Both the position numbers and the translations under genes were made by a program. The notes beneath the pieces were generated by a model, which saw only the letters and a program-made list of their open reading frames with translations, did not search any database and was not told the origin of the DNA. From assembly GCA_963793265.1 (NCBI GenBank), contig CAWBZI010000002.1:256001-320000 (forward strand): 64,000 bases of DNA, read 5' to 3'. Positions 523-28,342 of this stretch are shown in pieces (positions within the stretch are counted from its first letter, which is position 1; every line of letters starts with the position of its first letter). The DNA comes from an uncultured cyanobacterium. Lineage in GTDB: Bacteria > Cyanobacteriota > Cyanobacteriia > Phormidesmidales > Phormidesmidaceae.

Positions 523-539
523 GAACCAAAGAAAGAAAC

Positions 540-752: not shown

Positions 753-762
753 ATCAACAACG

Positions 763-972: not shown

Positions 973-1021
973 TAGCTTGTTTCCTCTGCTGCGTTAGTCA
1001 ACAGATTCATGATAGCAGCAC

Positions 1022-1057
1022 AAAAAAACTCCCTAGCATCCAAAAGACGCTAGGGAG
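1022..1057 (-). terminator. Intrinsic terminator after the PEP-CTERM gene
   Basis: CTCCCTAGC/GCTAGGGAG stem followed by a 7-T run on the minus strand, ~40 nt past the stop codon. Confidence 0.8.
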
Positions 1058-1094
1058 CAAGTAACCTACTCAAACTTAAAAACTTATATCGGCT

Positions 1095-1949: not shown

Positions 1950-2221
1950 GAGCAAACCCCTTTTCCTTAGTAGAATTGCGGAACGCTTTATTGTTTATCC
2001 CTCAGTGTTTTCCGCTGAGTTTCGGTATAAACAACTACGTTTCGCTTGTCTTACTGTTGTATTCACGCAGACTCTTAGGTGATAAGGGTGCTAGCAATCA
2101 GTTTGCAATCACTTTATAAATCACGTGAATATGTAAGGAAGCTAGGAACTTTGTTCTATAGGTGTTAGTCTGCTGGAAATTTTCTTGATTTTGGAGGGCG
2201 TAAGGTCTTGCGCCCTTACGG

Positions 2222-2884
2222 TTATGCAGGCAGACCCCAGTGTGTCGGAGCAAAGTCGGCTAGTCTCGGAAGTATTTCGTCAGCCTGCTGATAGAGTTCG
2301 CGGTTCATGTGTGCAGCGGGCACGGCGACAACAAACATGCCAGCCGCTTTAGCGGCTTTTACCCCTGCTGGAGAATCTTCAAATACCAAACATGTCGCGG
2401 GATCGGCCTTTAGCCGTGTTGCAGCCACTAAGAAGCTATCGGGTGCGGGCTTGCTGCGTTTAACCGCTGGATCGCTGCCTAGCACAATGGCGTCAAACGT
2501 CGCTAGCCAGTCTTGATAGCGCTGCGTTTTGAGGTTGAATGTAACGGCTGCTGAACTGGTGGCGATCGCCTGCGGCACCCCCAAATCATAAAACCGCTGC
2601 GTCATCACCCTTGCGCCCGGCATCGGCATGGCCTCAGGCAGCATGTCATAAATCAGCTCATCCCTGGCCGCCAGGTGCTCCTCAGCCGTCAGCGGCAAAT
2701 CCAAATCATCCACTAAAATCTGGGCGCAGTCCATCGCCTGCCGCCCCATAATTTTGCGATGCAGAGCGGGCGTAAATGTCTTGCCATAACGGCTGGCGAT
2801 CATCTCATTCACCCGGCAGTAAATCGGCTCTGTGTCTAGCAGCAGCCCGTCAAAGTCGTAAATAAGATGGGTGATTTTTGGCAT
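2222..2884 (-). CDS. HAD-IA family phosphatase (pseudouridine-5'-phosphatase/GS1-like)
   Basis: DFDGLLLDTE motif I, IATSS, KPAPD and VFEDSPAG motifs. Confidence 0.9.
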   Translation of the reverse strand: MPKITHLIYDFDGLLLDTEPIYCRVNEMIASRYGKTFTPALHRKIMGRQAMDCAQILVDDLDLPLTAEEHLAARDELIYDMLPEAMPMPGARVMTQRFYDLGVPQAIATSSAAVTFNLKTQRYQDWLATFDAIVLGSDPAVKRSKPAPDSFLVAATRLKADPATCLVFEDSPAGVKAAKAAGMFVVAVPAAHMNRELYQQADEILPRLADFAPTHWGLPA

Positions 2885-2968
2885 GTTCCTCGCAGCACGT
2901 AAGCTCTGGCAATTTTGCTATTAACTATGCCACGAGTCGCGCAAGCCCGCCGTTATCAGCCAACCAGT

Positions 2969-5900
2969 CTAAAAAGATAGCTGAATGCCGCCATCTATCA
3001 TCACGCCGTCATTATCGCTCCAGGTGTCTTGCATCCGAACATACAGGCCCGGCCCTTTAGATCGCCCAGTTCCTACCGTTTCCACAATGCGTTCCGGCTG
3101 AGCAGTGCCGCCTGCATCCGTACGAACCTCTGTTACAAACTGATTTACCGGCACCGCCACCATTTCTCCATTGGCTGCTGTCATCATTTCGACGACCGGC
3201 TCGCCGTTAGCATCTATCACTGGCTCTGTTTTATAAAGAGGGACAGCCTCGCCTGCTAAGTTGTACTGATAAGCTGCCCGCTGCCGTTCGCCAAAGGGAT
3301 GAAAAATGGCTGAGGCCCGCCAGCCTGCGCTAGTGCCTTCGCGATCGCGCCCAAAGAGCGTATTTTTTAAAAACAGCTCGGCCCGCAGCGTATTTGCCGC
3401 TGGCGTCCAAGGCGTATTGCCAAAGTTGAAGACACCGCCAAACGCAATTTCTCCGTCTACCGGCGCAGCATTCGCATAGCTATCGGTATCTGTGGTTGTG
3501 TCGGCTTCGACAATATCGGTGCGAGTACTCAGCGTTTCTATTACCTCTTCAGTCGTTGACTCGACCAAAACTTCCTCACCCGTTTGAGTGATGGTGGTTG
3601 TGTCTATATCCCGGCGCTCTGGATCAAACAGCACGGTTGAGGTGGGAGAAAAGGTGGGGTTCTCTAGCAAACCCTCGGTATTGATTTCAAAGGTCGCGGT
3701 GCCGGTTCGCTGCGATCGCTCGGTCGTCTCTACAGTTGTCGTCTCAATCTGTGAGGCAGGCGTGGAGAATATATTGATTGTCTCTAGCGATCGCCGCTGG
3801 TCGGTCGCTGTTGATATCGTAGAACGCCGCCGAGTGACCGTATCTTGCTGGTTGCCAATGCCGCCAGTGAGCGAAGCGCCTACATAGAGGCCGAAGGCTC
3901 TGGTCGTACGTGCGTATGCTCTTTGTCCGCCATCAGAAGCCAAAATTGGATAGATCTCATTGCCGACGCGTGCGTCTGCTTCACCCGGATCGTCCAAATC
4001 GACGGTTGAAGTGCGATCGCCGCTTAAAAACTCCGTATATAGTCCTTGAATGCCGTTAAACACAGCCGTCGCCGCATTCTGAGCGGCGATGGTATCTTCT
4101 ACCGCGTACACTTCTTCAGCCTCTTTTAAAAAGTTCTGCGGCTGCTGATCGGCTGAGATAATCCGAAAGCCACCCTCGACGATCTGATAGCCTTCCGCGC
4201 CGCCTTCTACGCCTTGAGTCACCTCGTAGGTTTGCCCGACCCGCAGGTTTTGGTCTGGCTGCTGCGGCACCAGCGCGTAGATTGCGCGCCTCGCCTCGCC
4301 TGGCGCTAGTGAAATTGGTTCACGCGCATACTCATCACTATCCCACTGCGGCACAAACACCATTTCACCGCCTACTTGCTCAATTAGCAGTCCGCCTACA
4401 TTGCGCGTATAGGCCGAATTTCCCACACCCACGCGCCAGGGATTTGGGGGGGCAATCATCACTGCCGAGTTAGTCGGAAGCTGAAAAACGCCGTTATCCG
4501 AGCTGAGCTGCTCGCCTTTAATCACCTCGCCTGAGCGATCGGGCACATAGCCCACCAGCCGCCGATTGTTGAACAAGCCGGTTGGCTCTAGCAGGCGATC
4601 CGACTGCCCGGTCTGAACGTCATTGCCCAAAGCATCTGTAGCCAGCCGATGCGTCCGGCTCAAAAACTGCGTTACGCTAACCGAGCCTACTAAACCCGCC
4701 TCGCCATCGCCCACAAAAGGATTGAACGTTAGCTCTCCTGACAATAAAGTCGGCGGTGCGCTCGGATTTTCAACCAGCGGCGCAAGCTGCCCGGCCGCGC
4801 TAAACCCGTCGCTTCCGGCCCTGATTTGCCCTGTACCGGCATAGCGGTTATACACAAGCTGCTCGCCCGCCTCAGTTCGCACGCCCACCGCATGAGTCAG
4901 CCGTGCTGCCGATAGCTCAGGAATCTCCACCCGCCCTCGATCAATCTCTTCTAAAACAATATCTTCAACCGTCTCAATCGTTTCTATCTCACCCTCTTCT
5001 ACCAGCAGCTCTCGCCTGATCTCGGGTTCTAGCAACGTCTCGTCCGTTCGCGTTGAAAACGTAACGTTGACATCATCTTCAATTGCGATCGCCTCTCCTA
5101 CACCCATCCGCACGTTTAGATAGTCACCGTCATTAAAGTCTTTGTCGCCGCCGCCCTGCAAATCTTCAACAATCAAATTGCCACTAGCATCAAAGTAAGC
5201 CCCAGACTCGGTTGCCGCCGCATTGTCACTACGCAAATTAAGGAGCTGAATTTCTATCCGCTCACCCTCTTCGTAAGTGACGAACAAAGATTCTGTTGTA
5301 TTTAAAAGCTGACCATCTGGCCCGCGTGTCACACCGTCTCCTCTTACAAAGGCGCGCGTTACTGGCTGACCATTGCCATCGACAACACTTGCACCCGGAA
5401 CAACATTACCGTCAGTATCTAACACCCTCACTTCAATACCTTCACCAAAGGCATGGTTGCCTACATCCTGGTTCAAGTTCAGCTCGGTCGTCACGTTTAC
5501 CGAGCCGTTCTGTAGCGTAAACGTTGGGCCAGCAGCGCCACTGTTGATCACACTGCCAAAATTCTCTCGAATGTAGTCTAAGTCAGTGCCTAAGATAACG
5601 CTGTTGGGCGCAAGCGTTCCGTCAGTAGTCGTTGGAATCGTCTGACCTGAGGCCGTTCCAGCCGGTACGTCTACCGGCAGTGGAATGCTCGAATTATTGG
5701 TTAAGTCTCCGGTATCGATAGTGTAGGCGTTGCGATTGACGCTCACGCCACCTGTATTGGCATCGCGATTTACCACCGCTTGAGCCTGCACCTCTTTATG
5801 TCCTGCAATCGCTAATCCGCCGGTCAGCAACAGCACCCTCATCAGCTTGTTCAACTGAGTATTGTCTTTGTGAAGCGCTTCATGAAGCATCCCTAGTTTC

Positions 5901-6007
5901 AAGGGATGCGCTGCTCGCGACGAGGCAACTTCTAACAGAGCCGTTGATGGAGCCACTGATGAGGATGTTGATGAAGCAGTGCGTTTGCTTGGCACAGGCG
6001 TTTTCAT
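2969..6007 (-). CDS. Large secreted acidic protein, putative outer-membrane protein; paralog 1 of 4
   Basis: Hydrophobic signal ending VQA-Q (true start may be an internal Met); EDLQGGGDKDFNDGDY motif; C-terminus DGGIQLSF; colinear with the three upstream paralogs. Confidence 0.85.
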   Translation of the reverse strand: MKTPVPSKRTASSTSSSVAPSTALLEVASSRAAHPLKLGMLHEALHKDNTQLNKLMRVLLLTGGLAIAGHKEVQAQAVVNRDANTGGVSVNRNAYTIDTGDLTNNSSIPLPVDVPAGTASGQTIPTTTDGTLAPNSVILGTDLDYIRENFGSVINSGAAGPTFTLQNGSVNVTTELNLNQDVGNHAFGEGIEVRVLDTDGNVVPGASVVDGNGQPVTRAFVRGDGVTRGPDGQLLNTTESLFVTYEEGERIEIQLLNLRSDNAAATESGAYFDASGNLIVEDLQGGGDKDFNDGDYLNVRMGVGEAIAIEDDVNVTFSTRTDETLLEPEIRRELLVEEGEIETIETVEDIVLEEIDRGRVEIPELSAARLTHAVGVRTEAGEQLVYNRYAGTGQIRAGSDGFSAAGQLAPLVENPSAPPTLLSGELTFNPFVGDGEAGLVGSVSVTQFLSRTHRLATDALGNDVQTGQSDRLLEPTGLFNNRRLVGYVPDRSGEVIKGEQLSSDNGVFQLPTNSAVMIAPPNPWRVGVGNSAYTRNVGGLLIEQVGGEMVFVPQWDSDEYAREPISLAPGEARRAIYALVPQQPDQNLRVGQTYEVTQGVEGGAEGYQIVEGGFRIISADQQPQNFLKEAEEVYAVEDTIAAQNAATAVFNGIQGLYTEFLSGDRTSTVDLDDPGEADARVGNEIYPILASDGGQRAYARTTRAFGLYVGASLTGGIGNQQDTVTRRRSTISTATDQRRSLETINIFSTPASQIETTTVETTERSQRTGTATFEINTEGLLENPTFSPTSTVLFDPERRDIDTTTITQTGEEVLVESTTEEVIETLSTRTDIVEADTTTDTDSYANAAPVDGEIAFGGVFNFGNTPWTPAANTLRAELFLKNTLFGRDREGTSAGWRASAIFHPFGERQRAAYQYNLAGEAVPLYKTEPVIDANGEPVVEMMTAANGEMVAVPVNQFVTEVRTDAGGTAQPERIVETVGTGRSKGPGLYVRMQDTWSDNDGVMIDGGIQLSF

Positions 6008-6094
6008 ATTGATTTTGGTGATTGTTTCTCTACGCTTTCATAGGCAATCTTCTATTTCCTGTCTATGCTAAAAACTACGTATCAAAAAACTTTG

Positions 6095-6115
6095 AAACTT
6101 TATGTCGTTAAAATT
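6095..6115. promoter_or_regulatory. Conserved imperfect palindrome upstream of paralog 1
   Basis: AAACTTTATGTCGTTAAAATT; matches 9445-9465 at 19/21 positions and resembles 12981-13000. Confidence 0.55.
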
Positions 6116-6121
6116 GTTGTA

Positions 6122-6153
6122 TAGGAAATTTCAAAAACTGCTGAAATTTCCTA
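6122..6153. repeat. Perfect 12-bp inverted repeat upstream of paralog 1
   Basis: TAGGAAATTTCA-N8-TGAAATTTCCTA. Confidence 0.6.
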
Positions 6154-6189
6154 CAGTGATAGTGCAACAACAACAATGATCTAAATCAC

Positions 6190-6223
6190 AAAAAGCGCCT
6201 CTCTTTAACAAGAGAAGCGCTTT
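6190..6223 (-). terminator. Intrinsic terminator after paralog 2
   Basis: AAAGCGCCTCTCT/AGAGAAGCGCTTT stem with T-run on the minus strand. Confidence 0.75.
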
Positions 6224-6227
6224 GAGA

Positions 6228-6270
6228 CTCTATTCCAATCAGCTCTATTCCAATCAGCTCTACTTCAATC
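6228..6270. repeat. 15-bp tandem repeat x3
   Basis: CTCTATTCCAATCAG twice, then the degenerate copy CTCTACTTCAATC. Confidence 0.85.
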
Positions 6271-6319
6271 GTAAGTGCGCGTTTAGAGCCTGCTTGCAAA
6301 CGCGGGCGGGCCTTAGCCC

Positions 6320-9184
6320 TTAAAAGGTGAACTGAAGTCCGCCGTCAAAGGCTACGCTGTCGCCGTCATCAAACGAATCTTCTACCCGTAGGTAAACGCC
6401 AGGCCCCTTCGAGCGACCTGTTCCTGCCATTTGAGGTATGCGATCGCCATTTTCATCCAGCACAAATCGGTTCACCGGCATCTCTACCGTTTCACCGTCA
6501 GGCCCTGTGAGCACCTCTACGACCTGATCTCCATTGGCATCTAGCACCGGCTCGGTTTCATAGATAGCCGACACTGCGCCCGTCTCATCATACTGATAGG
6601 CTTCTTCTCGCTTCTCGCCAAACGGATGGAAGATAGCAGCAGCGCGCCAGCCCACCTCAGAACCATCACCGCCACGGCCAATGACCGTATCTCTGCCAAA
6701 CAGCTCGGCGCGCAGCGTATTAGCCGCGGGTGTCCAGGGCGTGTTGCCGAAGTTCATCACGCCGCCTATAGCTAGCTCGCCGCGAATAGGGGTTGCGTTC
6801 GCATTGCTCTCCGAGCGCCGCTCAGGCTCACTGCTATCAGACTCAATTACGCGAGTTTCAAGGTTCTCAACTGTCTCAGTCGAATTCGACTCGACTAGCA
6901 CCTCGTCTTCAAGATCAATGCGATCGCCCGGCTCTAGCGTGCGCGTATTGGTATCGACAACTCTCGCTTCAGAAGTCGGATCAAACGCCACATTCTCAAG
7001 CGCGCCGTTCCCGTTGATATCAAAGCTGGCCGTGCCGTCTCTTTCAGTTGTCGTCGTCGTTTCAATCGTCGTCGAAAGCACCTGTACTCTAGGCGTTTCA
7101 AAGATATTCACCCGCCTTGAAATCCGCTGCAAGTCTGTCTCTGTTGTTAGCGTTGTGCGAATCTCATCAAACGTATCGCGCTGGTTACCAATACCTCCGG
7201 CTAATGAGCCTGCAATATAAAAGCCTGCGGCCCGAGTCGTGCGGCTATACGCCTGCTGTCCAATTTGTGGCAAGAGCGAATTACCCACTCGTGCATCAGC
7301 TAACTCTGGAATATTGGGATCGACAGTGGGCTCAAGTTCGCCGTCAGGCTCAATATACAGCCCGCGAATGCCGTTAAAGACAGCGGTCGCTGCGTTGTCT
7401 ATAGTCGGCAGCGTGTCTTCTACGGTATAAACCTCTGTGGTTTCTTGGTAGAAGTTCTCAGGATTTTGATCGGCAGCAATGATGGTAAAACCGCCGTCTG
7501 CAATCCGATAGTTTTCGCCGCTAGCATCAACGGTATAGGTTTGGCCTAGCGTTAGGTTTTGACCGGGCTGCTGAGGCACCAGCGCATAGATAATTCGACT
7601 GACTTCTCCAGGTGCTATGGCCGTTGGCGTTTGGGCATAGCCAGCGTTTGTCCACTGCGGCACAAACGTAAGCGATCCGTCTGTACCCTCTAAAATAAAA
7701 CCGCCTACGTTGTCGGTATAGGCAGCGTTGCCACGACCGACTCGGTTGGGATCAGGGGGTGCGATCGCAATGGCGCGATCCGAAGGCAGATCAAAAATAC
7801 CGTTCACCGCACTCACCTCCTGACTGGTTGGCACGTAGCCCACCATCCGACGGTTGTTGAATAAGCCTGTGGGCTCTAGCAGCCTGCGGTCGTCATCTTC
7901 GGGGGTAACCAGTTCGTTGCCAAAAATATCAGTCGCTTCGCGGTGAGTGCGGGTGATGAACTGGGTGATACCGATTGAGGTTGAGAAACCGGCTTCGTTG
8001 TCATCTGCAAACGGATCGAAAATGGCATCGGCTGTCAGTAAGGTCGGGGGCGCTTGAGGATTACCGATTAAAGGTCGTAGCTGACCTGTGGCACCTACGC
8101 CATCACTCCCTAAGCGCACTTGCCCGACTGAGGCATAGCGGTCATACACCAGCAGTTCATCGTCTTCAGTGCGCGCGCCAACGGCATGGCCTAGCCGGTT
8201 AGAAAGATTGTCAGGTAGCTCGACGCTGCCAAAATCTCGGTTGGCCTGAGTTACTTCTTCAGAAACTGCCGTGACCGTCTCAATCTCATCGCGCTCAATC
8301 ACTTCTTCTTCGCGCCGTTCAGGATCAAGCGGCTCAAACGCGTCCTCCGTGTCAGTCTCAACCACGGTGTCTCGCTCGATCGCGGCAGCAGTACCCTGTC
8401 CACCCGGCAGATCTACATATTCACCATCATCAAAGTCGAGGTCGCCGCCTTGTGGCAAATCTTCTGCAATGATCTGTCCGTCTCTCGTGAAATAGACGCC
8501 TGATTCTGAGGGCTGCGCGTTATTGTCTCTGACGTTGAGAATGCGCAGCTCAACCCGATCGTTTTCATCGTACTCAACGGTGATGCTTTCATTTGAAGGC
8601 AGCGTTTGTCCCTGAGGGCCTACTGTAACGCTATCGCCTCTAACAAATCTTCGCTCTTGACTGAGAACATTGCCATCTTGATCAAAGACGGTGACCTGGA
8701 TGCCCTCGCCAAACGCATGATTGCCCGGTACATAGTTCAGATCGAATGTAGTAGTGGTGCGTATGGAGTTGCGCTGAAGCGCAAACGTTGGCCCATCATC
8801 TCGATTCACAATCTCGTTAAAAGCGCGGTTGATGTACTCAAAATCTGTAGAGATATCGAGGCTGTTTGGCGCAAGCCGGTCGGTATCGACATCTAGCGCC
8901 TGCCCTTCTACGGTTTCTTCTGGCAGCTCCGTAGGCAGTGGAATATCCGAGGTATTGGTGAGTGGCCCCGTGTTGATGTCAAAGGCGTTTTGATCGACAA
9001 AGACAGCACCCGTATTGTCGTCACGGTTGACGCTCACGCGTGATCTGGACGGTGCTGTTTGGGCGATCGCACTTTGGCCGACAAGACCAAGACCACCAGC
9101 AATCATAAATACCGCCCATAGCAGCTTGAATGTAGGTGTGCTAAAAGAGGTGCTGGCTGATTGGGGGCGGATGAATAGAGACAT
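6320..9184 (-). CDS. Large secreted acidic protein, putative outer-membrane protein; paralog 2 of 4
   Basis: Signal peptide ending AIA-Q; EDLPQGGDLDFDDGEY; C-terminus DGGLQFTF. Confidence 0.87.
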   Translation of the reverse strand: MSLFIRPQSASTSFSTPTFKLLWAVFMIAGGLGLVGQSAIAQTAPSRSRVSVNRDDNTGAVFVDQNAFDINTGPLTNTSDIPLPTELPEETVEGQALDVDTDRLAPNSLDISTDFEYINRAFNEIVNRDDGPTFALQRNSIRTTTTFDLNYVPGNHAFGEGIQVTVFDQDGNVLSQERRFVRGDSVTVGPQGQTLPSNESITVEYDENDRVELRILNVRDNNAQPSESGVYFTRDGQIIAEDLPQGGDLDFDDGEYVDLPGGQGTAAAIERDTVVETDTEDAFEPLDPERREEEVIERDEIETVTAVSEEVTQANRDFGSVELPDNLSNRLGHAVGARTEDDELLVYDRYASVGQVRLGSDGVGATGQLRPLIGNPQAPPTLLTADAIFDPFADDNEAGFSTSIGITQFITRTHREATDIFGNELVTPEDDDRRLLEPTGLFNNRRMVGYVPTSQEVSAVNGIFDLPSDRAIAIAPPDPNRVGRGNAAYTDNVGGFILEGTDGSLTFVPQWTNAGYAQTPTAIAPGEVSRIIYALVPQQPGQNLTLGQTYTVDASGENYRIADGGFTIIAADQNPENFYQETTEVYTVEDTLPTIDNAATAVFNGIRGLYIEPDGELEPTVDPNIPELADARVGNSLLPQIGQQAYSRTTRAAGFYIAGSLAGGIGNQRDTFDEIRTTLTTETDLQRISRRVNIFETPRVQVLSTTIETTTTTERDGTASFDINGNGALENVAFDPTSEARVVDTNTRTLEPGDRIDLEDEVLVESNSTETVENLETRVIESDSSEPERRSESNANATPIRGELAIGGVMNFGNTPWTPAANTLRAELFGRDTVIGRGGDGSEVGWRAAAIFHPFGEKREEAYQYDETGAVSAIYETEPVLDANGDQVVEVLTGPDGETVEMPVNRFVLDENGDRIPQMAGTGRSKGPGVYLRVEDSFDDGDSVAFDGGLQFTF

Positions 9185-9444
9185 GGGGGGACTTCAGGAA
9201 GGGAGTTTCTAGTGATAGTAGATTTGCTTAACGTTTGTCGCAGGTGGGTTTGCGCGGCCTTTGTAAACGTTTGACGTTATCTTCAGGGATGGTGCTGAAC
9301 TATATTTCAGTATGAATACTTATTCTCTGTGAGTTTTTTAAAATTGACATTCACAGTAAAACCTTCTAGGAAAAGGCGTAAACCTATTGAGATGAGTTAA
9401 AACAAGCCTTCTCTAGGGGAACCAAAGGGTTGAAATATAGTCTA

Positions 9445-9465
9445 AAACTTCATGTTGTTAAAATT
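9445..9465. promoter_or_regulatory. Conserved imperfect palindrome upstream of paralog 2
   Basis: AAACTTCATGTTGTTAAAATT. Confidence 0.55.
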
Positions 9466-9917
9466 TCGTACATGGCGGCTCAGGATGTAGCAAAGCTCAC
9501 GAAGGGTTCATGAAAGTGCGACTGTAGGCAAACGCTATACGAAGGGTTATAAAAGCCTCCTTTAAGGCGCGATAAAGACTCAGCGCAGAGCGCAACAACA
9601 ACTTTCTCTGAGCATTACGCCTCCTAAGAGAGCGCTCACCAAAGACGCTACCAACTTGTCGTGACTTCTATAAGACGCTACCGCTTTGTACGTATTTCTG
9701 CTATTGCCTTCATATTTTCTTTACCTTGTAGCTATAAAAGCCCATCGCTTTGTGTCAGTTCTTAGGGGCTTCCTGTTAAAACGGCCATATTCCGCTAGTG
9801 GTAGATCTTTGAGCAGCTTCAGCTCAAAGTGATTTAGCTCACGGCCCAACGGTAATTTCGGCGAGCTGCTCAGTGATATCACTTAATCGTTTATCAAGGC
9901 CCTAAGAAAATAATTCT

Positions 9918-12770
9918 CTAGAAAGAGAACTGAATACCCCCGGCGACTTGAGGCCCTACCCCACTGCTAAAGACATCTTCTAGCCGTAAGTACACACCAG
10001 GCCCCTGAGCGCGGCCAATGCCTTCTTTTTGAGGCGTGCGATCGCCATTTTCATCCAACACAAACCGATTGACCGGCACCGCTACAGATTCGCCGTTCTC
10101 ACTCATTAGCGTTTCCATAAGCTGAGCGCCGCTGCTGTCGTACACCGGCTCTGTTTCGTAAAGCGCGATCGCCCTGCCTGAGGCGTCATATTGATAGGCT
10201 TCGCGCTGCACCTCTCCAAATGGATGGAACAACACTTCTGCGCGCCAGCCAATGCCGCCGTCATGACGGCGACCGATCACGGTTTCTTTGGCAAACAGCT
10301 CAGCGCGCACGGTATTAGCAGCGGTCGTCCAGGGCGTATTGCCAAAATTAAACACACCGCCCAAAGCAATTTCACCTTGCACCGCAGAGAAATTGGCCTG
10401 TGAATCTGTCTCGGTTGTTGTCTCTTCATCTGCCGATACCAGCCTGGCGACCATCGGCGCATTCTCTTCAGCGGTCACACTGCTTGCTAAAAACTCTTCT
10501 CCGCGCACCAGGCGCTGCTGAACATTTCTCTCAATGCTAGAAACATCTGTTGTGGTGCGTGTGCCTTCTACAAACCGAACGTTTTCAAGCTCGCCTTGGC
10601 TGTTGATATCAAATAGCGCTGTGCCTGTGTTCTGCGCGGTGGTGGTGGTTTCTCGCTGTGAGGAGTCCACCTGCGTGAGTGGCGTAAAGAACGTATCGAG
10701 CGTTCTAAGCTGTCTCATTTCATCGATATCGCGAGCAATCGTAGTCGTCGTGCGCTGAACGGTATCTTGCTGGTTGCCAAGTCCGCCTGTGAGCGCGCCG
10801 CCCAAATAAAAGCCTGCTGCCCGCGTTGTTTTTCTGTAGGCATTTTGCCCCACATCACCCACCACCACGTCCATTGGAAACAGCATATTTCCAACCCGCG
10901 CATCGGCCTCAGCGGCTAAGCCGACGTCTACTGTCGGCACCGGCTGACCACCCAACGTCTCGGCATAGATGCCTTGCACGCCATTAAATAAGCTGGTGAC
11001 TGCGTTGCCGTCAGGCAGGGTATCTTCTACCGCATAGACCTCTGGCATCTCCTGCACAAAGTTTTGTGGGTACTGGTCTGCTGCGATAATTTTGAAGCCA
11101 CCGTCAGCAATCTGGTAGCCATTGCCTTGTCGAGTCACTGCGTATGAGCCCCCTACCTGCAATGCTTGGCCTGTCTGCTGAGGCACCAGTGCGTAGATCA
11201 TGCGAGTTGCCTCTTGAGCTTCTAGTGAGATCGGGGTTTGCGCGTAGCCGTTATTGGCCCACTGCGGCACAAAGGTAATCTCGCCCGCTGCACCTTCAAT
11301 CAGCAGGCCGCCAACGTTGTCGGTATAGGCAGAATCTCCTCTGCCTACCCGCGTAGGATCAGCCGGTGCGATCACCACAGCGCGATCGCTCGGTAGCTCA
11401 AAGATCCCGTCTCTCGAAAAAATCTGACTTCCCAACACCGTCTCACTCTGCGTCGGTGGCACGTAGCCGACCCATCGCTGGTTGTTCAACAATCCAGTCG
11501 GTTCGAGCAGCCGATCGTCGCCACTAGCAGGCTCAATCACATTCCCAAATACATCTGTTGCCTGCCGGTGTGTTCGGTTGAGAAACTGCGTAACGCCGAC
11601 AGTTGCAGAGAGCCCGGCTTCGTTGTCGCCCACAAAGGGATTAAAGTTGAGATTACCGTGCAGGAGCGTTGGCGGTGCGCTCGGATTTTTTATTAGCGGT
11701 GCGAGCTGTCCGGTGACCCCTACACCGTCACTGCCTAATCGCACTTCAGATTCTGCGGTGTAGCGGTCGTAAATCAAATATTCGCCCGCTTCAGTTAGCG
11801 CTGCTGAGGCGTGACCTAGCCGGTCTGCTATCGTATCAGGCGCTTCTACGCTGCCAAAAGTCTTCTCACTTTGTTCATCTGTTTCGACTTCTCGAAGCGT
11901 TCTGACGACTTCGGTTTCAAGCCGCTCCTCCTGTCGAGTTTCCGGTGCCAACGGCGTTTCAGACTGGAGGTCTTCTACAACAACCTCGCTAATTTCTTCT
12001 AACGTTAGCGCCTCGCCCCGGCCCCCTGAAATTTGTAGATAGTCACCGTCGTTAAAGTCTCTATCGCCACCGTCTTGAAGATCTTCAACAATAAACTGAC
12101 CGTCTTCGGTGAAGTATATCGCTGACTCATTCGGCGCAGCGTTGTCTTCTCTAATATTAAGCACGCGCAGCTCAACCGTTTCATCTGCGCCATAGCTCGC
12201 TGTGACCTGGGCGCTTTCGGGTAAGCGATCACCCTGATTAAACTGAACGCGATCGCCCCTAACAAAAGCCGATTCCTCTGATTTAACCGACCCATCTTCA
12301 TTAAAAACCGTCACTGTAATGCCCTCACCAAAGGCATGATTACCTCGACCATAGTTCACATCAAACTGAGTCGTTAGCTCCAAAGTTTCTGTTTGGAGCT
12401 GATAGGTTGCCCTCGGATTTTCTTGGGACAAAATGTTGTTGAAAGCGCCGTTGATGTAGTCTACATCGGTGGTAAGTTCGATGCTGTTAGGCGCAAAAAC
12501 GCCTGGGCGTGGCGGTAGGGAAACGCCCTCTCTAGCATCTATGGGCAGGCGGTCGGGCAAAGCAATATTAGAGCCGTTATTCAGCTCGCCTGTTTGAAAG
12601 TCGAAGGCGTTGTTATCGACTCTCACCACGCCGCTGGCACTGTCGTAGAAGATTTCTTGAGCGATCGCGCCCTCTGCCATCAGCCCTAGACCACCCGTTG
12701 CGATCAAAACTGACAACAGAGCTGCAGAAGGCACGTTATAAGAAGTGGAAGCTGGGTGTAGGGATGTCAT
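9918..12770 (-). CDS. Large secreted acidic protein, putative outer-membrane protein; paralog 3 of 4
   Basis: Signal peptide ending AIA-Q; EDLQDGGDRDFNDGDY; C-terminus AGGIQFSF. Confidence 0.87.
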   Translation of the reverse strand: MTSLHPASTSYNVPSAALLSVLIATGGLGLMAEGAIAQEIFYDSASGVVRVDNNAFDFQTGELNNGSNIALPDRLPIDAREGVSLPPRPGVFAPNSIELTTDVDYINGAFNNILSQENPRATYQLQTETLELTTQFDVNYGRGNHAFGEGITVTVFNEDGSVKSEESAFVRGDRVQFNQGDRLPESAQVTASYGADETVELRVLNIREDNAAPNESAIYFTEDGQFIVEDLQDGGDRDFNDGDYLQISGGRGEALTLEEISEVVVEDLQSETPLAPETRQEERLETEVVRTLREVETDEQSEKTFGSVEAPDTIADRLGHASAALTEAGEYLIYDRYTAESEVRLGSDGVGVTGQLAPLIKNPSAPPTLLHGNLNFNPFVGDNEAGLSATVGVTQFLNRTHRQATDVFGNVIEPASGDDRLLEPTGLLNNQRWVGYVPPTQSETVLGSQIFSRDGIFELPSDRAVVIAPADPTRVGRGDSAYTDNVGGLLIEGAAGEITFVPQWANNGYAQTPISLEAQEATRMIYALVPQQTGQALQVGGSYAVTRQGNGYQIADGGFKIIAADQYPQNFVQEMPEVYAVEDTLPDGNAVTSLFNGVQGIYAETLGGQPVPTVDVGLAAEADARVGNMLFPMDVVVGDVGQNAYRKTTRAAGFYLGGALTGGLGNQQDTVQRTTTTIARDIDEMRQLRTLDTFFTPLTQVDSSQRETTTTAQNTGTALFDINSQGELENVRFVEGTRTTTDVSSIERNVQQRLVRGEEFLASSVTAEENAPMVARLVSADEETTTETDSQANFSAVQGEIALGGVFNFGNTPWTTAANTVRAELFAKETVIGRRHDGGIGWRAEVLFHPFGEVQREAYQYDASGRAIALYETEPVYDSSGAQLMETLMSENGESVAVPVNRFVLDENGDRTPQKEGIGRAQGPGVYLRLEDVFSSGVGPQVAGGIQFSF

Positions 12771-12980
12771 TTCAGGAACCGAGGAAATTGCTGTACAAGA
12801 AGTGAAAAGATGTATAAAATTACACTTCTTATTCGCAATCCTACTGACAGCAACCCTGAGGTCACCTCCGTACAGTCGTCTTTGCCTCAGTAGTCACCCA
12901 TACTAATCGAGTAAAGTTTATCTTCTAAAAGCTAATAGAATCAGTACTCCTACGTAGATTATTGAATAATCAACGCTGAC

Positions 12981-13000
12981 AACTTTACATAGTTGAAATT
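12981..13000. promoter_or_regulatory. Conserved imperfect palindrome upstream of paralog 3
   Basis: AACTTTACATAGTTGAAATT, same AACTTYA-N6-TRAAATT layout. Confidence 0.45.
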
Positions 13001-13037
13001 GAGATGAATTAATCAAGCACTGCCCTAAAACGCTGAA

Positions 13038-13057
13038 AGCCTCTCAACTGAGAGGCT
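13038..13057. terminator. Hairpin after paralog 4, possible terminator
   Basis: AGCCTCTCA-AC-TGAGAGGCT about 80 nt past the stop codon. Confidence 0.5.
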
Positions 13058-13135
13058 CTAGCTTTTTGAAGCAGCGATAAAACTGGCAGCAGAGTGTGTG
13101 TAACTTTGGCAAAGGTCTTGACTTGTTTGCTGAAG

Positions 13136-16060
13136 CTAGAAGGCAAACTGAAGGCCACCTGCAATCACAACGCCATCGTTATCGCTAAAAATATCTTCTA
13201 GGCGCAGATAAACACCCGGCCCTTTAGCGCGCCCTGTCCCGACCGTTTCGGCCACGCGATCGCCGAACTCATCTACAACAAACTGGTTCACAGGCACCGT
13301 AGCCGTCTCACCATCTGCCAAAGTAATCGAATCTAGGAGCTGAGAACCGCTGCTGTCTAGTACCGGCTCCGTTTTATAAAGGGCCACTGCGTTTCCTAGC
13401 GTGTCGTACTGATAGGCTTCCTTGTGCACCTCACCAAAAGGATGAAACACCACCTCGGTTCTCCATCCTGTTTCGTTACCACGACTGCTGCGCCCAAATA
13501 CTGCATCTCTGGTAAACAGCTCAGCTCGCACGGTATTTGCCGCAGGCGACCACGGCGTATTGCCAAAGTTCATCACGCCGCCCAAAGACAGCTCGCCCTG
13601 CACAGAAGAGAAGTTCGCATACGAATCGGTATCCTCTGTTGTCTCGCTGTCTGTCTCAACAAACCTACGCTCAGTCACTTCTGTTCTTTCAAATGGCGTG
13701 CTGCTTACCAGCTCCTCTTCACCTCGCTCAATTTGAGTTTCACGCGCTAGCTCTCTAGTCGAAGTTTGAGTGCTTCGAGTGTCTTCTACAAACCTGGCCT
13801 CAGCAATTTCTCCTCGTTCGTTGATGGTGAAAAAGGCCATGCCGACACCCGTCGTATTTTCAGATATCTCTGTAATGACAGAATCGACCTGCGATCGCGG
13901 CGTCATAAACGTATCGATCGTTCCTTGGGTTCTAATCTCATTAGTCACCAGCTCGCGTGAAGAAGTCGTCCGGCTCACCCGATCTTTCTGGTTACCAATT
14001 CCGCCTGTCAGCAGCCCGCCAATATAAAAGCCAAAGGATCGAGTCGTCCGCGCATAGGCTCCCTGGCCCTCAGAGCCAACGACCGTATCTAATGGAAACA
14101 ACGCATTTCCAACCCGCGCGTCAACCTCATCAGCAACAGTCACATCTACTGTTGGCACGGGCTCGCCGCCGGGTGCTTCTACATAAACGCCCCGAATACC
14201 ATTGAACAAATCGGTAATCGTATTCCCGACCGGCAGCGTGTCTTCTACGGCGTATACCTCCGCTGTCTCTGCAACAAAGTTATCCGGCTGTCGGTCAGCA
14301 GAAATAACGGTAAAGCCGCCGTCAGCAATCTGGTAGCTGTCAGGCCCGTCTACCACCGCATATCGCTCGCCAAGCTGTAGCGCCTGTCCCGACTGCTGTG
14401 GCACCAGCGCATAAATTGCTCGCGTAGCCTCGCCAGCTTCTAATACAATCGGCTCCGCGGCAAAACCAGCTGCTGTCCACTGAGGCACGAACGTTAAGTT
14501 CCCGGCCGCATCTTCAAGTAAAAGACCACCGACATTGTTGACGTAGGCTGCGTTTCCTCTGCCAGTGGCTGTCGCTGGACGGGTGATCTCTACCGCCTGA
14601 TCGCCCGGCAGCTCAAAAATACCGTTTGTTGGAAATATCTGAGGCCCTAGTGCCGTTTGATTAGGGGTTGATGGCACATAGCCCACCCAGCGGCGGTTAT
14701 TAAATAAGCCCGCTGGCTCAAGCAGCCGAGGCCCGTCTGGATCGGGGTTAACAATCTCATTGCCAAACACGTCTTTAGCGACCCGGTGCGTTCGATTGAA
14801 AAACTGTGTGATTCCAAGCCCTGTGGTGAAGCCCGCCTCATTGTCACCCACAAAAGGATTAAATCGCACGTCTCCGGTGAGTAGCGTGGGCGGCGCGCTT
14901 GGATTTCTAATCAGTGGCGCAAGCTGACCCGTTGCCGCTAGGCCATCACTACCCAACCGAAACCGGCCTGTGCTCGTATAGCGATCGTAAACGAGTAAAT
15001 CACCTTCTGCGCTGCGCGCGCCTCTGGCATGACCTAATCGAGGTGAAAGAAACTCGGCTATTTCGACTTCCCCATAATCTCGCTCCTCTGTGATTAGCGC
15101 TGATGCAGGGGTCACTTCCTCAACTTCTAGCTCCCTGATAACAACAGTCTCCTGCCGCATTTCAGGATCAAGCGGCATCTCATCAGGAATTCTTTCTATC
15201 GAAGTCTCGTTGAGTTCAGTCTGTGCTAACGCCTCACCTTCTCCGCCCGTAATTAGTAGATAGTCACCATCGTTAAAGTCTCTGTCGCCGCCCTCTGGTA
15301 GGTCTTCAACGACTAGCTGGCCGTCTTCAGCAAAATAAACGCCTGATTCGAATGGCTGTCCATTGTTTTCTCTAAGATTAAGCACGCGCAGCTCAACATT
15401 GTCTTCTGTTCCATACGTTACGCTAATATCTTCACTTTCGGGCAACTGTTCGCCGTCTGGCCCAATCACAATGGCATCGCCGCGTACAAAAACGCGCTCT
15501 CGGCTAATCACCTCACCATCTGGCCCGAACACAACCGCCTCAATGCCCTCGCCAAAGTCGTGATTGCCAACGCTACGGTTTACATCAAAGTCTGTAGTGA
15601 CCTGCAAAGAATCAGGCTGCAATTGAAACGTGTTGCCCTCTTCTGGGGTCAAAATGCTATCAAGTGCCTCGTTGATATAGTCCACATCAGAACTCAACTC
15701 AACATTGTTGGGCGCTAAGATCCCGGCGTTTGTAGGTAGTGGAACGCGGTCTGAGGTTTCACTAGGTAGCCCGTCTGGTATGGGAATATCAGACTCGTTT
15801 GAGAATCGGCCTGTTTGAATATCAAAAGCGTTGTTGTCTAGCCGCACAAAACCGGTATTGGGATCGAGGGAAATATTAGGATTGGTTTGGGCGATCGCAC
15901 TCCGTTTTCCTACACCAATCCCACTGACTGCTAGCAACAAACTCAAAAACGCTAGCACAGGGCGAAGCGAAGCATGGTGATGGGTAACGGAGCGAACAAC
16001 ACAAAGAACAGCATTAAGCTGAGAAACACTGACTGATCCGAATAATTTCATGACTGACAT
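13136..16060 (-). CDS. Large secreted acidic protein, putative outer-membrane protein; paralog 4 of 4
   Basis: Signal ending AIA-Q; EDLPEGGDRDFNDGDY; C-terminus AGGLQFAF. Confidence 0.87.
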   Translation of the reverse strand: MSVMKLFGSVSVSQLNAVLCVVRSVTHHHASLRPVLAFLSLLLAVSGIGVGKRSAIAQTNPNISLDPNTGFVRLDNNAFDIQTGRFSNESDIPIPDGLPSETSDRVPLPTNAGILAPNNVELSSDVDYINEALDSILTPEEGNTFQLQPDSLQVTTDFDVNRSVGNHDFGEGIEAVVFGPDGEVISRERVFVRGDAIVIGPDGEQLPESEDISVTYGTEDNVELRVLNLRENNGQPFESGVYFAEDGQLVVEDLPEGGDRDFNDGDYLLITGGEGEALAQTELNETSIERIPDEMPLDPEMRQETVVIRELEVEEVTPASALITEERDYGEVEIAEFLSPRLGHARGARSAEGDLLVYDRYTSTGRFRLGSDGLAATGQLAPLIRNPSAPPTLLTGDVRFNPFVGDNEAGFTTGLGITQFFNRTHRVAKDVFGNEIVNPDPDGPRLLEPAGLFNNRRWVGYVPSTPNQTALGPQIFPTNGIFELPGDQAVEITRPATATGRGNAAYVNNVGGLLLEDAAGNLTFVPQWTAAGFAAEPIVLEAGEATRAIYALVPQQSGQALQLGERYAVVDGPDSYQIADGGFTVISADRQPDNFVAETAEVYAVEDTLPVGNTITDLFNGIRGVYVEAPGGEPVPTVDVTVADEVDARVGNALFPLDTVVGSEGQGAYARTTRSFGFYIGGLLTGGIGNQKDRVSRTTSSRELVTNEIRTQGTIDTFMTPRSQVDSVITEISENTTGVGMAFFTINERGEIAEARFVEDTRSTQTSTRELARETQIERGEEELVSSTPFERTEVTERRFVETDSETTEDTDSYANFSSVQGELSLGGVMNFGNTPWSPAANTVRAELFTRDAVFGRSSRGNETGWRTEVVFHPFGEVHKEAYQYDTLGNAVALYKTEPVLDSSGSQLLDSITLADGETATVPVNQFVVDEFGDRVAETVGTGRAKGPGVYLRLEDIFSDNDGVVIAGGLQFAF

Positions 16061-16714
16061 CTAGGGGGGGTAGAAGCGACGGAGCGATTGAGAAACGCTT
16101 TATAGCGTTATCAACAACTGCTAGGACAAGAGATCTCTTGTTCTAACAGGGCTGTTTATATAGAACAAAAGAGCTGAGTAGCTCATCGAGGTATCTCAAT
16201 GCCAGCAACCTTGCTGGTTACTGGTGAGTGAAAATTTAGCTAGCTACGATGGTGCAGCTAACGACCTTTCAGCCGTATAGATTTCTTTTACGCAACATCC
16301 ACAGCCGTGAGCGAAAAATCCTTTTTAGCAATCTGCGCTGTGCTGTTTTGCTACGACGATTTAGAGCGACACGGCCAATGGCAAAAGAGGAAACCCTGAC
16401 ATACCTTGGTCTGTGTAGAAAAGTACAGACAATAGGTATGTCAAGTAGGGCAAAGTAGCGTAGCAGTTTTTACCTGGAAAAATGGTGTCAAAAACGTCTT
16501 CAAATCTTTTCTTAAAGCGTTCCTGGCGACAGTAAACAGTTAATAAATCAGATGATTCGTAAGGAAAACATCTTTCAAATAGCCTTCCGAACAAAAGCAG
16601 CACATACCGTAGCTGCCGTTTACCTAACGACGATAATTCTAAAATCCAAAGCACCACTTCACACAAACCTTACCTTTATCCTCACGTACTTCACACAAGA
16701 TTAATCTACACCAT

Positions 16715-16755
16715 AAAAAGTTTCCAGTACTGAGGAAGTTCAGCACTGGAAATTT
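16715..16755 (-). terminator. Intrinsic terminator after alpha-amylase
   Basis: AAGTTTCCAGTACTGA/TCAGCACTGGAAATTT stem followed by a T-run on the minus strand. Confidence 0.7.
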
Positions 16756-16870
16756 AATAGTATTAAAAGATACTCAAGCGAAAAAGCGTAAGTTCTAGGT
16801 TAAAGACTGTCCTAACTGTTGAAAGCTTTCAGGCGATCGCGCCCATCGAATATTTCAACTGTTAGCGCCT

Positions 16871-18352
16871 TTAGCCCTCAGGAACCCACACTGACACCGA
16901 TCCAGCGTTGCAGCGAAAGTCAGCCCAGCCCTGATCATTTGTCACAACAGTGTCCTTGATCCCATCCGTAATATCTACGTAAGTGCGGTTAGCCTGGCCT
17001 ACTTCCATCCACTTAGTTCCTTCATCTCCGTTACTGAGCACAACGGCCATTCCGCCCGGCTGCTCCTCGGTTCCTAATCGCGTCCAGCCCAGTGTGTTCG
17101 CATGATCGAAGTAGTCGTACTGATCGCCAAAAGCGTACGTACTTCTAGCTTCTAAAAACTTATCAATAATCCACTGATGACTGTCCATCCAAATTTCATA
17201 CTCACCACCATCTTTGCCGCTGTCTTTATAGTGTGCTCCGTAGTAATCGGCATAGAAAATGCATGGATAGCCCTCACGCCGTAGCAGAATTAGCGCATAG
17301 GCAATTGGCTTAAACCAGGCTTCTACTACCGATTCTAATGACTGTAAGGGCTGAGAGTCGTGATTATCAACGAGGGTCACCGCCAGCGCGGGCTGCTCTT
17401 TGACCAGGGTGTCGTCAAAGATAGATCGCATGTCGTAGTCTTTACCTTTTGTGCTCGCTACGCTGAAGTTGTAGTGCAAGGGCGCATCGAATAGCGCAAC
17501 ATCGCCGCCTGTCACGTCAATAAAATGGTGCAGCGCCTCGATTTCGTCAGACCAGTACTCGCCAACAGCGAACATCCGTTTGCCACTGTATTTGCGCACG
17601 TGCTTTAGCCAGCCTGGGAAGAAGCCCGCTCGAATATGCTTGACCGCATCAAAACGAAAGCCGTCAATATCAGTCGTATCGACATACCACTCGCCCCAGT
17701 TTGCCAGCTCTTTTCCGACCTCGGGATGGCTCAAGTCTAAATCGCAGCCCATTAAATAGTCAAAGCCACCTTTTTCTAAATCAACCGCATCATCAAATTG
17801 TTTGCCTTCAAAAAGATAGACGGCCTTGAAATCATCTGGAGCATACACATTGTAGTCCACCGCGTTGAAGTGCCACCAGTGCCATTCCAGCTCAGAATAC
17901 TTGCCCTGGCGACCTGGAAAAGTGAAGTGAGTCCAGGCTTTAATCGTGACTTGATCCCCAATAGGCTGGGTGCGATCGCTAGGTGCATAGGGCGTCACCT
18001 TAAACTCCTCTTCCTCATCAGCGCCTAGCTTATGATTGAGCACCACATCTGCATATATCTGGATGCCCGCATCGTGCGCTTTCTGAATTGCTGCTACGTA
18101 CTCGTCTTTTGTTCCATATTTTGTCCGCACCGATCCCTTTTGATCAAACTCACCTAGATCAAATAGATCGTATACACCGTAGCCCACGTCATAGCCACCT
18201 GCCGTTCCTTTATAAGCAGGCGGCAACCACAGCGCTGTAATACCTACTTTTGCTAGCGCCTCGGCTTTCTCGGCTACATCGTTCCATAGCTGGCCGTCTG
18301 GCTCGTTATACCAGTGAAAATATTGCATCATCACGCCATTAGGTGCAGACAT
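16871..18352 (-). CDS. amyA: Alpha-amylase, GH13 (cytoplasmic AmyA-like)
   Basis: NGVMMQYFHW, GYGVYDLFDLGEFDQKG, DGFRFDAVKH, EYW, VDNHD conserved regions; ATG at 18352. Confidence 0.95.
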   Translation of the reverse strand: MSAPNGVMMQYFHWYNEPDGQLWNDVAEKAEALAKVGITALWLPPAYKGTAGGYDVGYGVYDLFDLGEFDQKGSVRTKYGTKDEYVAAIQKAHDAGIQIYADVVLNHKLGADEEEEFKVTPYAPSDRTQPIGDQVTIKAWTHFTFPGRQGKYSELEWHWWHFNAVDYNVYAPDDFKAVYLFEGKQFDDAVDLEKGGFDYLMGCDLDLSHPEVGKELANWGEWYVDTTDIDGFRFDAVKHIRAGFFPGWLKHVRKYSGKRMFAVGEYWSDEIEALHHFIDVTGGDVALFDAPLHYNFSVASTKGKDYDMRSIFDDTLVKEQPALAVTLVDNHDSQPLQSLESVVEAWFKPIAYALILLRREGYPCIFYADYYGAHYKDSGKDGGEYEIWMDSHQWIIDKFLEARSTYAFGDQYDYFDHANTLGWTRLGTEEQPGGMAVVLSNGDEGTKWMEVGQANRTYVDITDGIKDTVVTNDQGWADFRCNAGSVSVWVPEG

Positions 18353-25649: not shown

Positions 25650-25713
25650 AGAAATATTTGTGGGGCCAAAAATCAGTAATGATATACTACGCTCCCAAGG
25701 CCGTTAGTTAAGA

Positions 25714-28340: not shown

Positions 28341-28342
28341 GG

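Follow-up and report, generated by a model that had tools for sequence, protein, structure and literature searches.

The 64,000-nucleotide stretch of DNA analysed here (the window; contig CAWBZI010000002.1, positions 256,001 to 320,000, from an uncultured cyanobacterium of the Phormidesmidaceae) carries between positions 2969 and 16060 an array of four paralogous genes for large secreted proteins. Structure prediction makes it highly probable that each protein combines a barrel, a stalk and a head with the fold of the lectin LecB. We put the chances at about even that they are self-displayed, calcium-dependent glycan-binding adhesins, in which a ten-stranded barrel holds the LecB-like head on a three-stranded stalk. 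The best reading of the paralogs is as an old repertoire. An adhesin repertoire was one of the ideas offered in the initial annotation, made from the sequence alone, and it is still the leading reading; the predicted LecB/DUF4114-like head, the three-stranded stalk and a probable second lectin-like domain go beyond that annotation.

All four open reading frames (ORFs) lie on the minus strand. ORF4 (13136..16060, 974 aa) is the first in reading direction, followed by ORF3 (9918..12770, 950 aa), ORF2 (6320..9184, 954 aa) and ORF1 (2969..6007, 1012 aa), which may in fact begin at a codon downstream of its first ATG. ORF3 was the copy modelled, and its mature numbering, used below, is the ORF residue minus 37. 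In the alignment the four were colinear end to end, with ORF2, ORF3 and ORF4 52, 50 and 48% identical to ORF1. Every near-invariant block listed in the initial annotation was found in all of them, together with the signal peptides and terminal Phe it had described. A genome search showed that these four intact ORFs are all the family copies in the source genome.

The annotation had found no characterised family to match, and database searches bore this out. No Pfam or NCBIfam match above cut-off was obtained for the four ORFs, and the PDB sequence search gave nothing below an E-value of 0.17. The Pfam matches were sub-threshold ones to DUF4114 only, on the EDLxxGGDxDFND motif of three ORFs. 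ORF3 had no match in PHROGs, and window positions 1-20000 had none in Rfam. Foldseek comparison of the full-length model with the PDB returned long-strand artefacts only (TM-score ≤ 0.09). In the ESM Atlas the whole protein gave sub-0.9 matches to small, mostly viral clusters, in two of which a minority of members carry outer-membrane barrel families, and the head alone gave no match. A literature search of titles and abstract openings, covering few subscription journals, found no description of this family.

Mature ORF3 was modelled with AlphaFold2 from 144 sequences (predicted local distance difference test, pLDDT, 88.5; predicted template modelling score, pTM, 0.52). The model contains ten barrel strands, at residues 303-309, 312-318, 331-339, 347-359, 614-627, 760-772, 782-795, 802-811, 888-896 and 904-912. 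Hydrophobic and polar faces alternate in all ten across the alignment, and strands 1 and 2 are joined by a short SDG turn. Three inserts of about 250, 125 and 75 residues split the barrel after strands 4, 5 and 8, in agreement with the outer-membrane barrel of scattered strands and large inserts that had been proposed. From model and alignment, strands 1-4 (residues 303-359) map to 11583..11753, strand 5 (613-630) to 10770..10823 and strands 6-8 (756-812) to 10224..10394; strands 9-10, with the terminal Phe as BamA-type signal, occupy 9921..10004. In ORF4 the barrel strands lie within 14801-14971, 13988-14041, 13442-13615 and 13139-13222. The insert after strand 8 is reduced to a turn in the shortest homologs, and the proteins P0123 and P0128 are without most of the insert after strand 4; these shrunken or missing inserts confirm the domain borders.

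Structural search of the full model against 48,161 chains was dominated by barrels, among them VhGalP (Z 11.8), AIDA-I (Z 10.8), KdgM (Z 10.4), NanC (Z 10.1), OmpT (Z 9.5) and OpcA (Z 9.4). The best-fitting small barrel was the designed ten-stranded TMB10_163 (Z 10.7, root-mean-square deviation [rmsd] 2.6, 133 of 143 residues). Soluble barrels of the nitrobindin type also match, up to Z 10.7; what speaks for a membrane barrel is that the hydrophobic faces point outward and that the proteins have a signal peptide and a terminal Phe. Gly, Ala, Ser or Thr make up 52% of lumen positions, and conserved Arg and Glu residues also line the lumen. The available part of one review describes a small-residue lining for type Vc pores, similar to the lumen composition here (PMC6555100).

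The C-termini of the four ORFs read GGIQLSF, GGLQFTF, GGIQFSF and GGLQFAF, and the terminal Phe is present in 168 of 181 family sequences. Signal peptides, called by hydropathy and cleavage pattern, appear as a single N-terminal hydrophobic stretch per ORF (15-residue mean hydropathy 1.8-2.4, versus ≤1.3 elsewhere) followed by a cleavage site of the AxA/Q type (the slash marking the cut), which is VQA/Q in ORF1. In alignment A2, 132 of 143 rows have Ala at position -1 and 133 of 144 have Gln at position +1. The putative Sec-type peptide of ORF3, at 12660..12770, ends in AIA/Q. The proteins share this Sec pattern and the C-terminal aromatic BamA signal with type Va autotransporters. The leaders ahead of the mature Gln are long (median 55 residues among family members); extended signal peptides are known from autotransporters, and mis-called starts could explain part of the length. 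Lipoprotein anchoring was ruled out, as the mature chains of all four ORFs have no Cys.

Beyond the barrel, the model of ORF3 has three very long strands (206-267, 628-685 and 691-757), rich in Glu and Thr and polar on both faces. The first, Glu-rich, descends from the head (stalk strand 1, residues 214-267, 11859..12020). The other two form the hairpin of barrel loop 3, between strands 5 and 6 (residues 631-755, 10395..10769; Thr/Glu-rich), with a turn near 686-690 beside the head. These strands are the least conserved part of the protein, with 33-36% identity among the four paralogs versus 59-70% for the barrel segments. Over 14 diverse homologs their lengths change together (first versus second, slope 1.00, r 0.999), in the classes 41/26/32, 42/28/34, 64/50/60, 74-77/60-64/72-77 and 118/102/124 residues. 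The lengths were taken from alignment anchors, which replaced an unreliable regular-expression measurement (71 of 248 sequences measured); P0138 and P0145, with no recognisable head, were excluded. In the main clade the outgoing strand has 53 residues in 67 of the 71 measured sequences. Co-evolution computed on 170 sequences gave an antiparallel peak at i+j 897-900, pairing strand 1 with the outgoing strand, and a peak at i+j 1377-1384 within the hairpin. In alignments with compact PDB domains the matched range runs from model residue 1 to about 695, so that in the model the hairpin tip touches the head. These results support a predicted stalk made of one N-terminal strand and two strands of barrel loop 3. 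About 55 residues at 3.3 Å would give it a length of 17-20 nm. A pore-forming toxin was considered and rejected: the leukocidin/hemolysin matches were poor (Z ≤ 5.4, rmsd about 6-7), and the stalk strands are polar on both faces.

In BamA substrates the last strand ends in the periplasm, and a terminal Phe strand is the BamA/Omp85 insertion signal. Applied here, this would put the strand 5-6 hairpin on the cell exterior, with the inserts after strands 4 and 8 on the inner side. The head very probably lies outside the cell, since its stalk strand pairs with external loop 3 according to the model, the length co-variation and the co-evolution. With the N-terminal stalk strand outside and strand 1 starting inside, residues of about 268-283 would have to cross the membrane. 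These residues are coil in the model, and matches to autotransporter structures begin at model residues 259-268, the start of the barrel-proximal segments of those chains. The linker and short hairpin (residues 268-302, 11754..11858) would thus thread the barrel lumen to the periplasm. Stalk pairing and aligned ranges lend support to a putative N-terminal passenger joined through a pore linker in this probable orientation.

A lumen filled in this way bears on another explanation, in which the protein is a glycan-capturing channel whose head collects oligosaccharides or metal complexes and whose barrel hands them to the periplasmic domain. Three sugar porins (VhGalP, KdgM and NanC) are among the best barrel matches, the lumen carries conserved Arg and Glu, and 11-13 loci have an iron ABC-type cluster in the vicinity. 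The sugar porins, however, align over part of their length only, and a common barrel fold is no evidence of function; the pore must be taken up by the linker, the head stands about 20 nm from the pore mouth, and the neighbours are housekeeping genes marking a conserved chromosomal site. We regard a channel as quite improbable.

For the N-terminal head (residues 1-205, 12045..12659; ORF1 5126-5785, ORF2 8423-9061, ORF4 15266-15889), a LecB-like fold had been proposed from the acidic motif ahead of the structural search. Folded alone, the head modelled as a beta-sandwich (pLDDT 94.4, pTM 0.89), with the LecB/PA-IIL fold in its core (residues 56-214). PA-IIL ranked first among the 48,161 chains (Z 6.0, rmsd 3.5, 106 of 114 residues). 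In a second comparison with 995 chains, the first 11 rows were all BclA, thrombocorticin, PA-IIL, CV-IIL and BC2L-C (Z 5.1-6.5), and BclA matched the full model at Z 6.9. The modelled head thus has the antiparallel beta-sandwich of PA-IIL at middling Z. Foldseek of the head against viral models produced no convincing match. Scores for DUF4114 (PF13448) stayed below the 27-bit Pfam cut-off both on the three ORFs (16.6-17.5 bits) and in the genome search (13.1-19.9 bits), and only the C-terminal third of that model matches. The head motif matched a DUF4114-like profile at 95% probability (E 2e-8, 22 columns).

The predicted calcium/sugar site is the acidic motif EDLQDGGDRDFNDG (residues 192-205, 12045..12086). 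Of the 181 sequences, 175-180 retain each of its acids E192, D193, D199, D201 and D204 (E192 178, D199 175, D201 177 and D204 178, with N/D203 in 172). Model residue 214 aligns to PA-IIL chain position 114, an offset of 100, which fits the positions of the LecB calcium loop (E95, D99, D101, N103 and D104) if the last strand is ungapped. The head accordingly has the acidic calcium loop of LecB/PA-IIL. In a second loop, RGNHAFGEG (residues 105-113, 12321..12347), H108, G111, E112 and G113 are conserved and positions 107 and 109 are hypervariable among the 181 sequences, and N107 co-varies with N203 (z 7.6). From this conservation and co-variation, residues 105-110 are likely a specificity loop beside the calcium loop. 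Positions 108-110 are HAF in three of the window paralogs and HDF in ORF4; differences in specificity among the four are plausible but, judged from these residues, not large. In the parts available of two papers, DUF4114 is grouped with BclA, RS-IIL and PA-IIL, and a D-to-A change in the DUF4114 calcium motif of Myxococcus PilY1.1 stops colony motility (PMC9109919; PMC13190605); a third, likewise available in part, describes an Acanthamoeba DUF4114 sandwich that binds mannose-agarose (PMC11934332). Given this modelled fold, it is somewhat more probable than otherwise that the head binds sugar.

The head might instead bind calcium only, without sugar specificity, and the proteins form a stalked acidic coat or lattice serving to stiffen the envelope or to nucleate carbonate. 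The proteins are indeed acidic (14-17% Asp plus Glu versus about 7% Lys plus Arg), the C-terminal carboxyl that completes LecB-type sugar sites is missing, and the near-fixed stalk length of the main clade is what a coat of even height needs. The hypervariable positions 107 and 109 between fixed neighbours, co-varying with N203, fit ligand specificity better, and a plain coat accords poorly with the retention of four old paralog lines and with the absence of the family from 4 of the 38 genomes in the genus, including one that is 97% complete. We therefore judge the calcium-only coat unlikely, although it is the most probable of the alternatives.

The insert between strands 4 and 5 (residues 360-612, 10824..11582), periplasmic by standard topology, is probably a second LecB/DUF4114-like domain, homologous to the head. 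In this middle domain residues 441-589 repeat the order of the head elements (AYTDNVGG resembling HAFGEGI, IYALV resembling ELRVL and VEDT resembling VEDL), and short forms of the protein have TVD(F/Y/N)ND where the head has DxDFND. Co-evolving pairs mirror those of the head (I454-A484, A526-V541 and D442-E584). A six-element profile comparison of the two domains gave z 3.8-4.0; its elements were paired by eye and the value is only suggestive. BLASTP and HHalign of head versus middle domain were non-significant, no better than reversed controls. None of the LecB-family rows against the full model fell on the middle domain, each row being an entry's best alignment only. The loop of this domain is nearly fixed, with E545, D546, T576 and D586 in 179 and D578 in 174 of 181 sequences. 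A fixed site inside and a variable site outside would fit a self ligand within, e.g. peptidoglycan-linked polysaccharide, which cyanobacteria carry according to the part available of a preprint (bioRxiv 10.1101/2020.03.24.006684). Binding of wall glycan by the periplasmic domain is possible but doubtful. The other internal insert, a beta-hairpin between strands 8 and 9 (residues 813-885, 10005..10223), is likewise periplasmic by standard topology.

The same wall polysaccharides, described in part of that preprint, would be available to a lectin under an inverted topology, in which stalk and head are periplasmic and tether the outer membrane to the thick peptidoglycan like OmpM or SlpA, with the 360-612 domain facing outward. 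A stalk of 17-20 nm would be of periplasmic scale, and no large N-terminal domain would have to cross the membrane. Inversion would, however, break the rule that generally holds for BamA substrates, by leaving the end of the terminal Phe strand on the outside; the N-terminal chain must cross the barrel anyway, and the variable loop is on the head whereas that of the 360-612 domain is nearly fixed. This arrangement is improbable, and an outward head remains our preferred orientation.

The family was narrowly distributed. A protein search gave 228 relatives, of which the best 120 are 51-82% identical, query aside; named relatives among those 120 are listed as hypothetical or uncharacterised and come from Phormidesmis, Leptolyngbya, Nodosilinea, Vacuolonema and unclassified cyanobacteria. 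A profile search of 1.84 billion representatives gave 62 matches, many of them fragments, with short forms of 624-745 aa, long forms of up to 1118 aa and two proteins from Candidatus Melainabacteria. The family was found in 45 of 150 genomes of the source's cyanobacterial family (two of the 45 as weak fragments), in 34 of 38 genomes of its genus and in none of 400 other genomes sampled across the phylum. The 48 named loci belong to Phormidesmis, Nodosilinea, Thainema, Vacuolonema and similar organisms. Two weak candidates were dropped: the match in genome G187 (E 1.3e-5), to a protein that looks unrelated, and P0178, a repeat protein.

Each locus has one to four copies, and some near-complete genomes have a single match. 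The initial annotation had also offered a hetero-oligomer; as an obligate assembly this was rejected on account of those single matches and the one on a phage locus, described below. Its old expansion kept by selection, in contrast, is upheld by a tree of 48 sequences (a chosen subset of 181) and by codon-position identities. Each window paralog clusters in the tree with sequences of other genomes, and the clades of ORF1, ORF2 and ORF3 as well as a four-sequence ORF4 group carry starred support, so the duplications predate the species. Among the copies, third codon positions are 37-41% identical versus 68-74% at second positions; near saturation at third positions with conserved second positions indicates old copies under purifying selection.

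The stalk tip appears exchangeable, as judged from sequence, since the head is replaced or missing in three relatives. P0138, P0144 (Candidatus Melainabacteria) and P0145 have the same barrel, stalk and middle domain, with the head swapped for an unrelated Gly/Pro/Asn-rich region without a Pfam match, or missing. P0123 and P0128 keep head, stalk and barrel, and the core of the middle domain is missing.

A short form of 637-642 aa lies on a 119 kb IMG/VR contig (IMGVR_UViG_3300003878_000001; L034:7932-9860), inside the head-morphogenesis region among portal, major head, head protease and terminase genes. It lies beside two DNA methyltransferases and a sulfotransferase-like protein (judged by eye), and the portal and capsid genes of this locus are on opposite strands. 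Such a setting, and the narrow distribution, favour a phage-conflict module, a phage-borne receptor mask or virion binder later expanded by the host as decoys; phage-encoded barrels are described as common, and suggested to alter receptors, in the main text of a preprint (bioRxiv 10.64898/2026.10.24.761521), which as far as available mentions no ten-stranded barrel, lectin or autotransporter. This was the only viral contig with a family member in two viral scans, none of 50,697 INPHARED phage records matched, and the host locus is stable, with housekeeping-gene flanks. There is little probability in a phage-conflict origin, and we retain the adhesin as the leading reading. No match was found in PLSDB plasmids. 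An alignment of the short forms gave no match in the genome collection, and a metagenome scan gave three loci, all long-form.

Among known systems, type Va autotransporters (AIDA-I, EstA, NalP, Hbp) are closest in layout, with a signal peptide, an N-terminal surface domain, a C-terminal barrel ending in Phe and, as inferred here, a pore linker; their barrels match at Z 9.4-10.8, starting in the linker region. The family differs in having 10 strands rather than 12, a split barrel instead of one contiguous C-terminal block, a linker that is coil in the model, a stalk to which both passenger and barrel loop 3 contribute, and the lack of a beta-helix and of any Pfam autotransporter match. Through-barrel autotransporters are described with 12 strands in the available part of PMC6555100. 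The initial annotation had seen no autotransporter likeness; the definition of the type Va barrel does exclude the family, but it is likely autotransporter-like, with an N-terminal part outside on a barrel linker.

The type Vf Helicobacter Hop and Hom proteins (BabA, HomB) share a small barrel with a large insert and are lineage-restricted paralogous adhesins. As described in the parts available of two reviews, type Vf has 8 strands, with the ectodomain placed between the first two of them, and lacks a passenger at either terminus (PMC6555100, PMC8714817), whereas the present family has 10 strands, is interrupted after strands 4, 5 and 8 and carries some 300 N-terminal residues ahead of strand 1, and so falls outside type Vf. 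OpcA and OmpT have ten strands and the same fold, and OpcA is an adhesin, but they are of about 250-300 residues, 7-9% identical, with no N-terminal ectodomain, stalk or inserted periplasmic domains. Cyanobacterial SLH-porins, OmpM/SlpA tethers and type Ve intimins, so far as their sources could be consulted, also join a barrel to a periplasmic domain with a possible link to the wall; the candidate wall-binding domain here would differ as an inserted LecB-like fold. The family had no SLH or LysM Pfam match, and at E ≤ 0.1 none to SLH or OprB, which places it outside the SLH/OprB porins.

The soluble LecB/PA-IIL lectins (LecB, BclA, CV-IIL, the BC2L-C C-domain, thrombocorticin) and DUF4114 share with the head its core fold (Z 5.1-6.9, 101-113 residues aligned), the acidic DxDFND loop and the adjacent variable loop. 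The head is 12-17% identical, has extra N-terminal strands and a helix and scores below the Pfam cut-offs; these lectins are dimers or tetramers, whereas the head is fused to stalk and barrel and has no partner-chain C-terminal carboxyl. The family likely works like an autotransporter adhesin outside the type Va and Vf barrel definitions, and we class it as a new architecture among self-displayed outer-membrane adhesins in the broad sense.

In the proposed mechanism, the Sec route would export the chain, with cleavage at the observed AxA/Q pattern, and BamA/Omp85 would insert the barrel through the terminal Phe strand, as generally known for this signal. The barrel ends would be periplasmic with loop 3 outside, and the strand below the head, paired with loop 3, would keep the head outside. 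Residues of about 268-283 would stay in the pore like an autotransporter linker. The modelled head would bind Ca2+ and a surface or matrix sugar through the EDxxxGGDxDFND loop, with the 105-110 loop tuning specificity among paralogs. In the weakest step, the domain between strands 4 and 5 may grip peptidoglycan-linked polysaccharide and make the protein a staple from wall to sheath.

Several observations weigh against this reading. The full-length pTM of 0.52 goes with low confidence in the mid-stalk. Barrel co-evolution was noisy, placing 283-285 near both ends, and there were strand 6-10 and 1-5 signals that a sequential monomer barrel does not explain and that may be oligomer contacts or noise. 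The pairs are S758-V905 and L619-P903 (strands 5/6 with 10) and R307-A622 (1 with 5). The 14 stalk-length points represent about five non-independent classes, and the lengths of other inserts track that of the stalk too, though at lower r (0.79 and 0.86). The path of the chain through the lumen was deduced from aligned ranges and from topology. For the head, the Z-scores of 6.0-6.9 are middling, Foldseek against the PDB gave no match at E ≤ 0.001, and Pfam matches were below cut-off for DUF4114 (5 of 16 members, best E 8e-5) and PA-IIL (1 of 16, best E 0.09). Its last strand runs on into the stalk and leaves no free C-terminus; LecB-family sites are completed by the partner chain's C-terminal carboxyl, according to the available part of PMC3164656. 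HHalign of the middle domain against head or DUF4114 was not significant (E 0.14-0.27).

Intergenic gaps of 312-733 bases with terminator-like hairpins suggest that the four genes are transcribed separately. Consensus matches to such hairpins were found after ORF2 (6192..6223, minus strand) and at 9555-9568 and 13038-13057; the region has 26 such sites versus 15.3 ± 4.3 in shuffles. A near-palindromic upstream motif precedes ORF1 (6095..6115, minus strand), in identical pattern ORF2 (9445-9465) and, with 4 mismatches, ORF3 (near 12980-13000, minus strand). This TTCA-N6-TGAA-type motif, about 280-550 bases upstream of the mature start, occurred at 5 mismatches in 13 of 52 upstream regions (1.3 expected in shuffles), including L013, L017, L029, L041, L045 and L056, and its 3-mismatch pattern has 2 sites genome-wide. 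It is likely a shared regulator site, judging from its recurrence.

Recurrent neighbours across 51 loci and the window were a HAD hydrolase (23), an amidohydrolase (16) and carB (15); with such housekeeping genes around it, the array marks a chromosomal site that is conserved. In 9-13 loci an iron ABC-type cluster and a PKHD-like hydroxylase (both identified by eye) lie near the array beyond carB (L050, L055, L057, L061-L064, L066, L072 and L073). Two genes downstream of the array, an XDD3-family PEP-CTERM surface protein (1095-1955, minus strand) is encoded, as in 7 loci including the window. Positions 23892-37506 encode a fatty acyl-AMP ligase, a 2809-aa ligase-ACP-KS-AT-DH-ER-KR-ACP polyketide synthase, a methyltransferase, a GT2 protein and a multi-pass membrane protein; the product of these genes may be a glycolipid or an envelope lipid. 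Three tandem ORFs of 538-573 aa at 51872-57084 (plus strand), two with an N-terminal glutaredoxin domain and, that domain aside, no Pfam match at E 1e-8, are possibly another paralog array.

A wider interpretation, which we hold tentatively, is a new type V-like self-display. A ten-stranded barrel would export its own 270-residue N-terminus and lock it with its own loop as a length-tunable stalk (about 8 to 33 nm across homologs), LecB-type lectins on both membrane sides would staple wall glycan to sheath, neighbours or surfaces, and the short phage version would re-dress the host. A ten-stranded barrel is, to our knowledge, smaller than any known through-pore autotransporter barrel. If it is a natural autotransporter, it would offer a direct test of export via a finished pore versus a hybrid barrel with BamA. 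A stalk of one passenger and two loop strands, lengthened in step, would be an unusual molecular ruler and a possible display scaffold, and the family offers about 180 natural variants of the LecB-type specificity loop. The SLH-peptidoglycan link is described, in the part available of the preprint on wall polysaccharides, as the only known cyanobacterial outer-membrane tether (bioRxiv 10.1101/2020.03.24.006684). The proteins of this family are named candidates for how cyanobacteria may stay attached to their sheath, to neighbouring cells or to surfaces.

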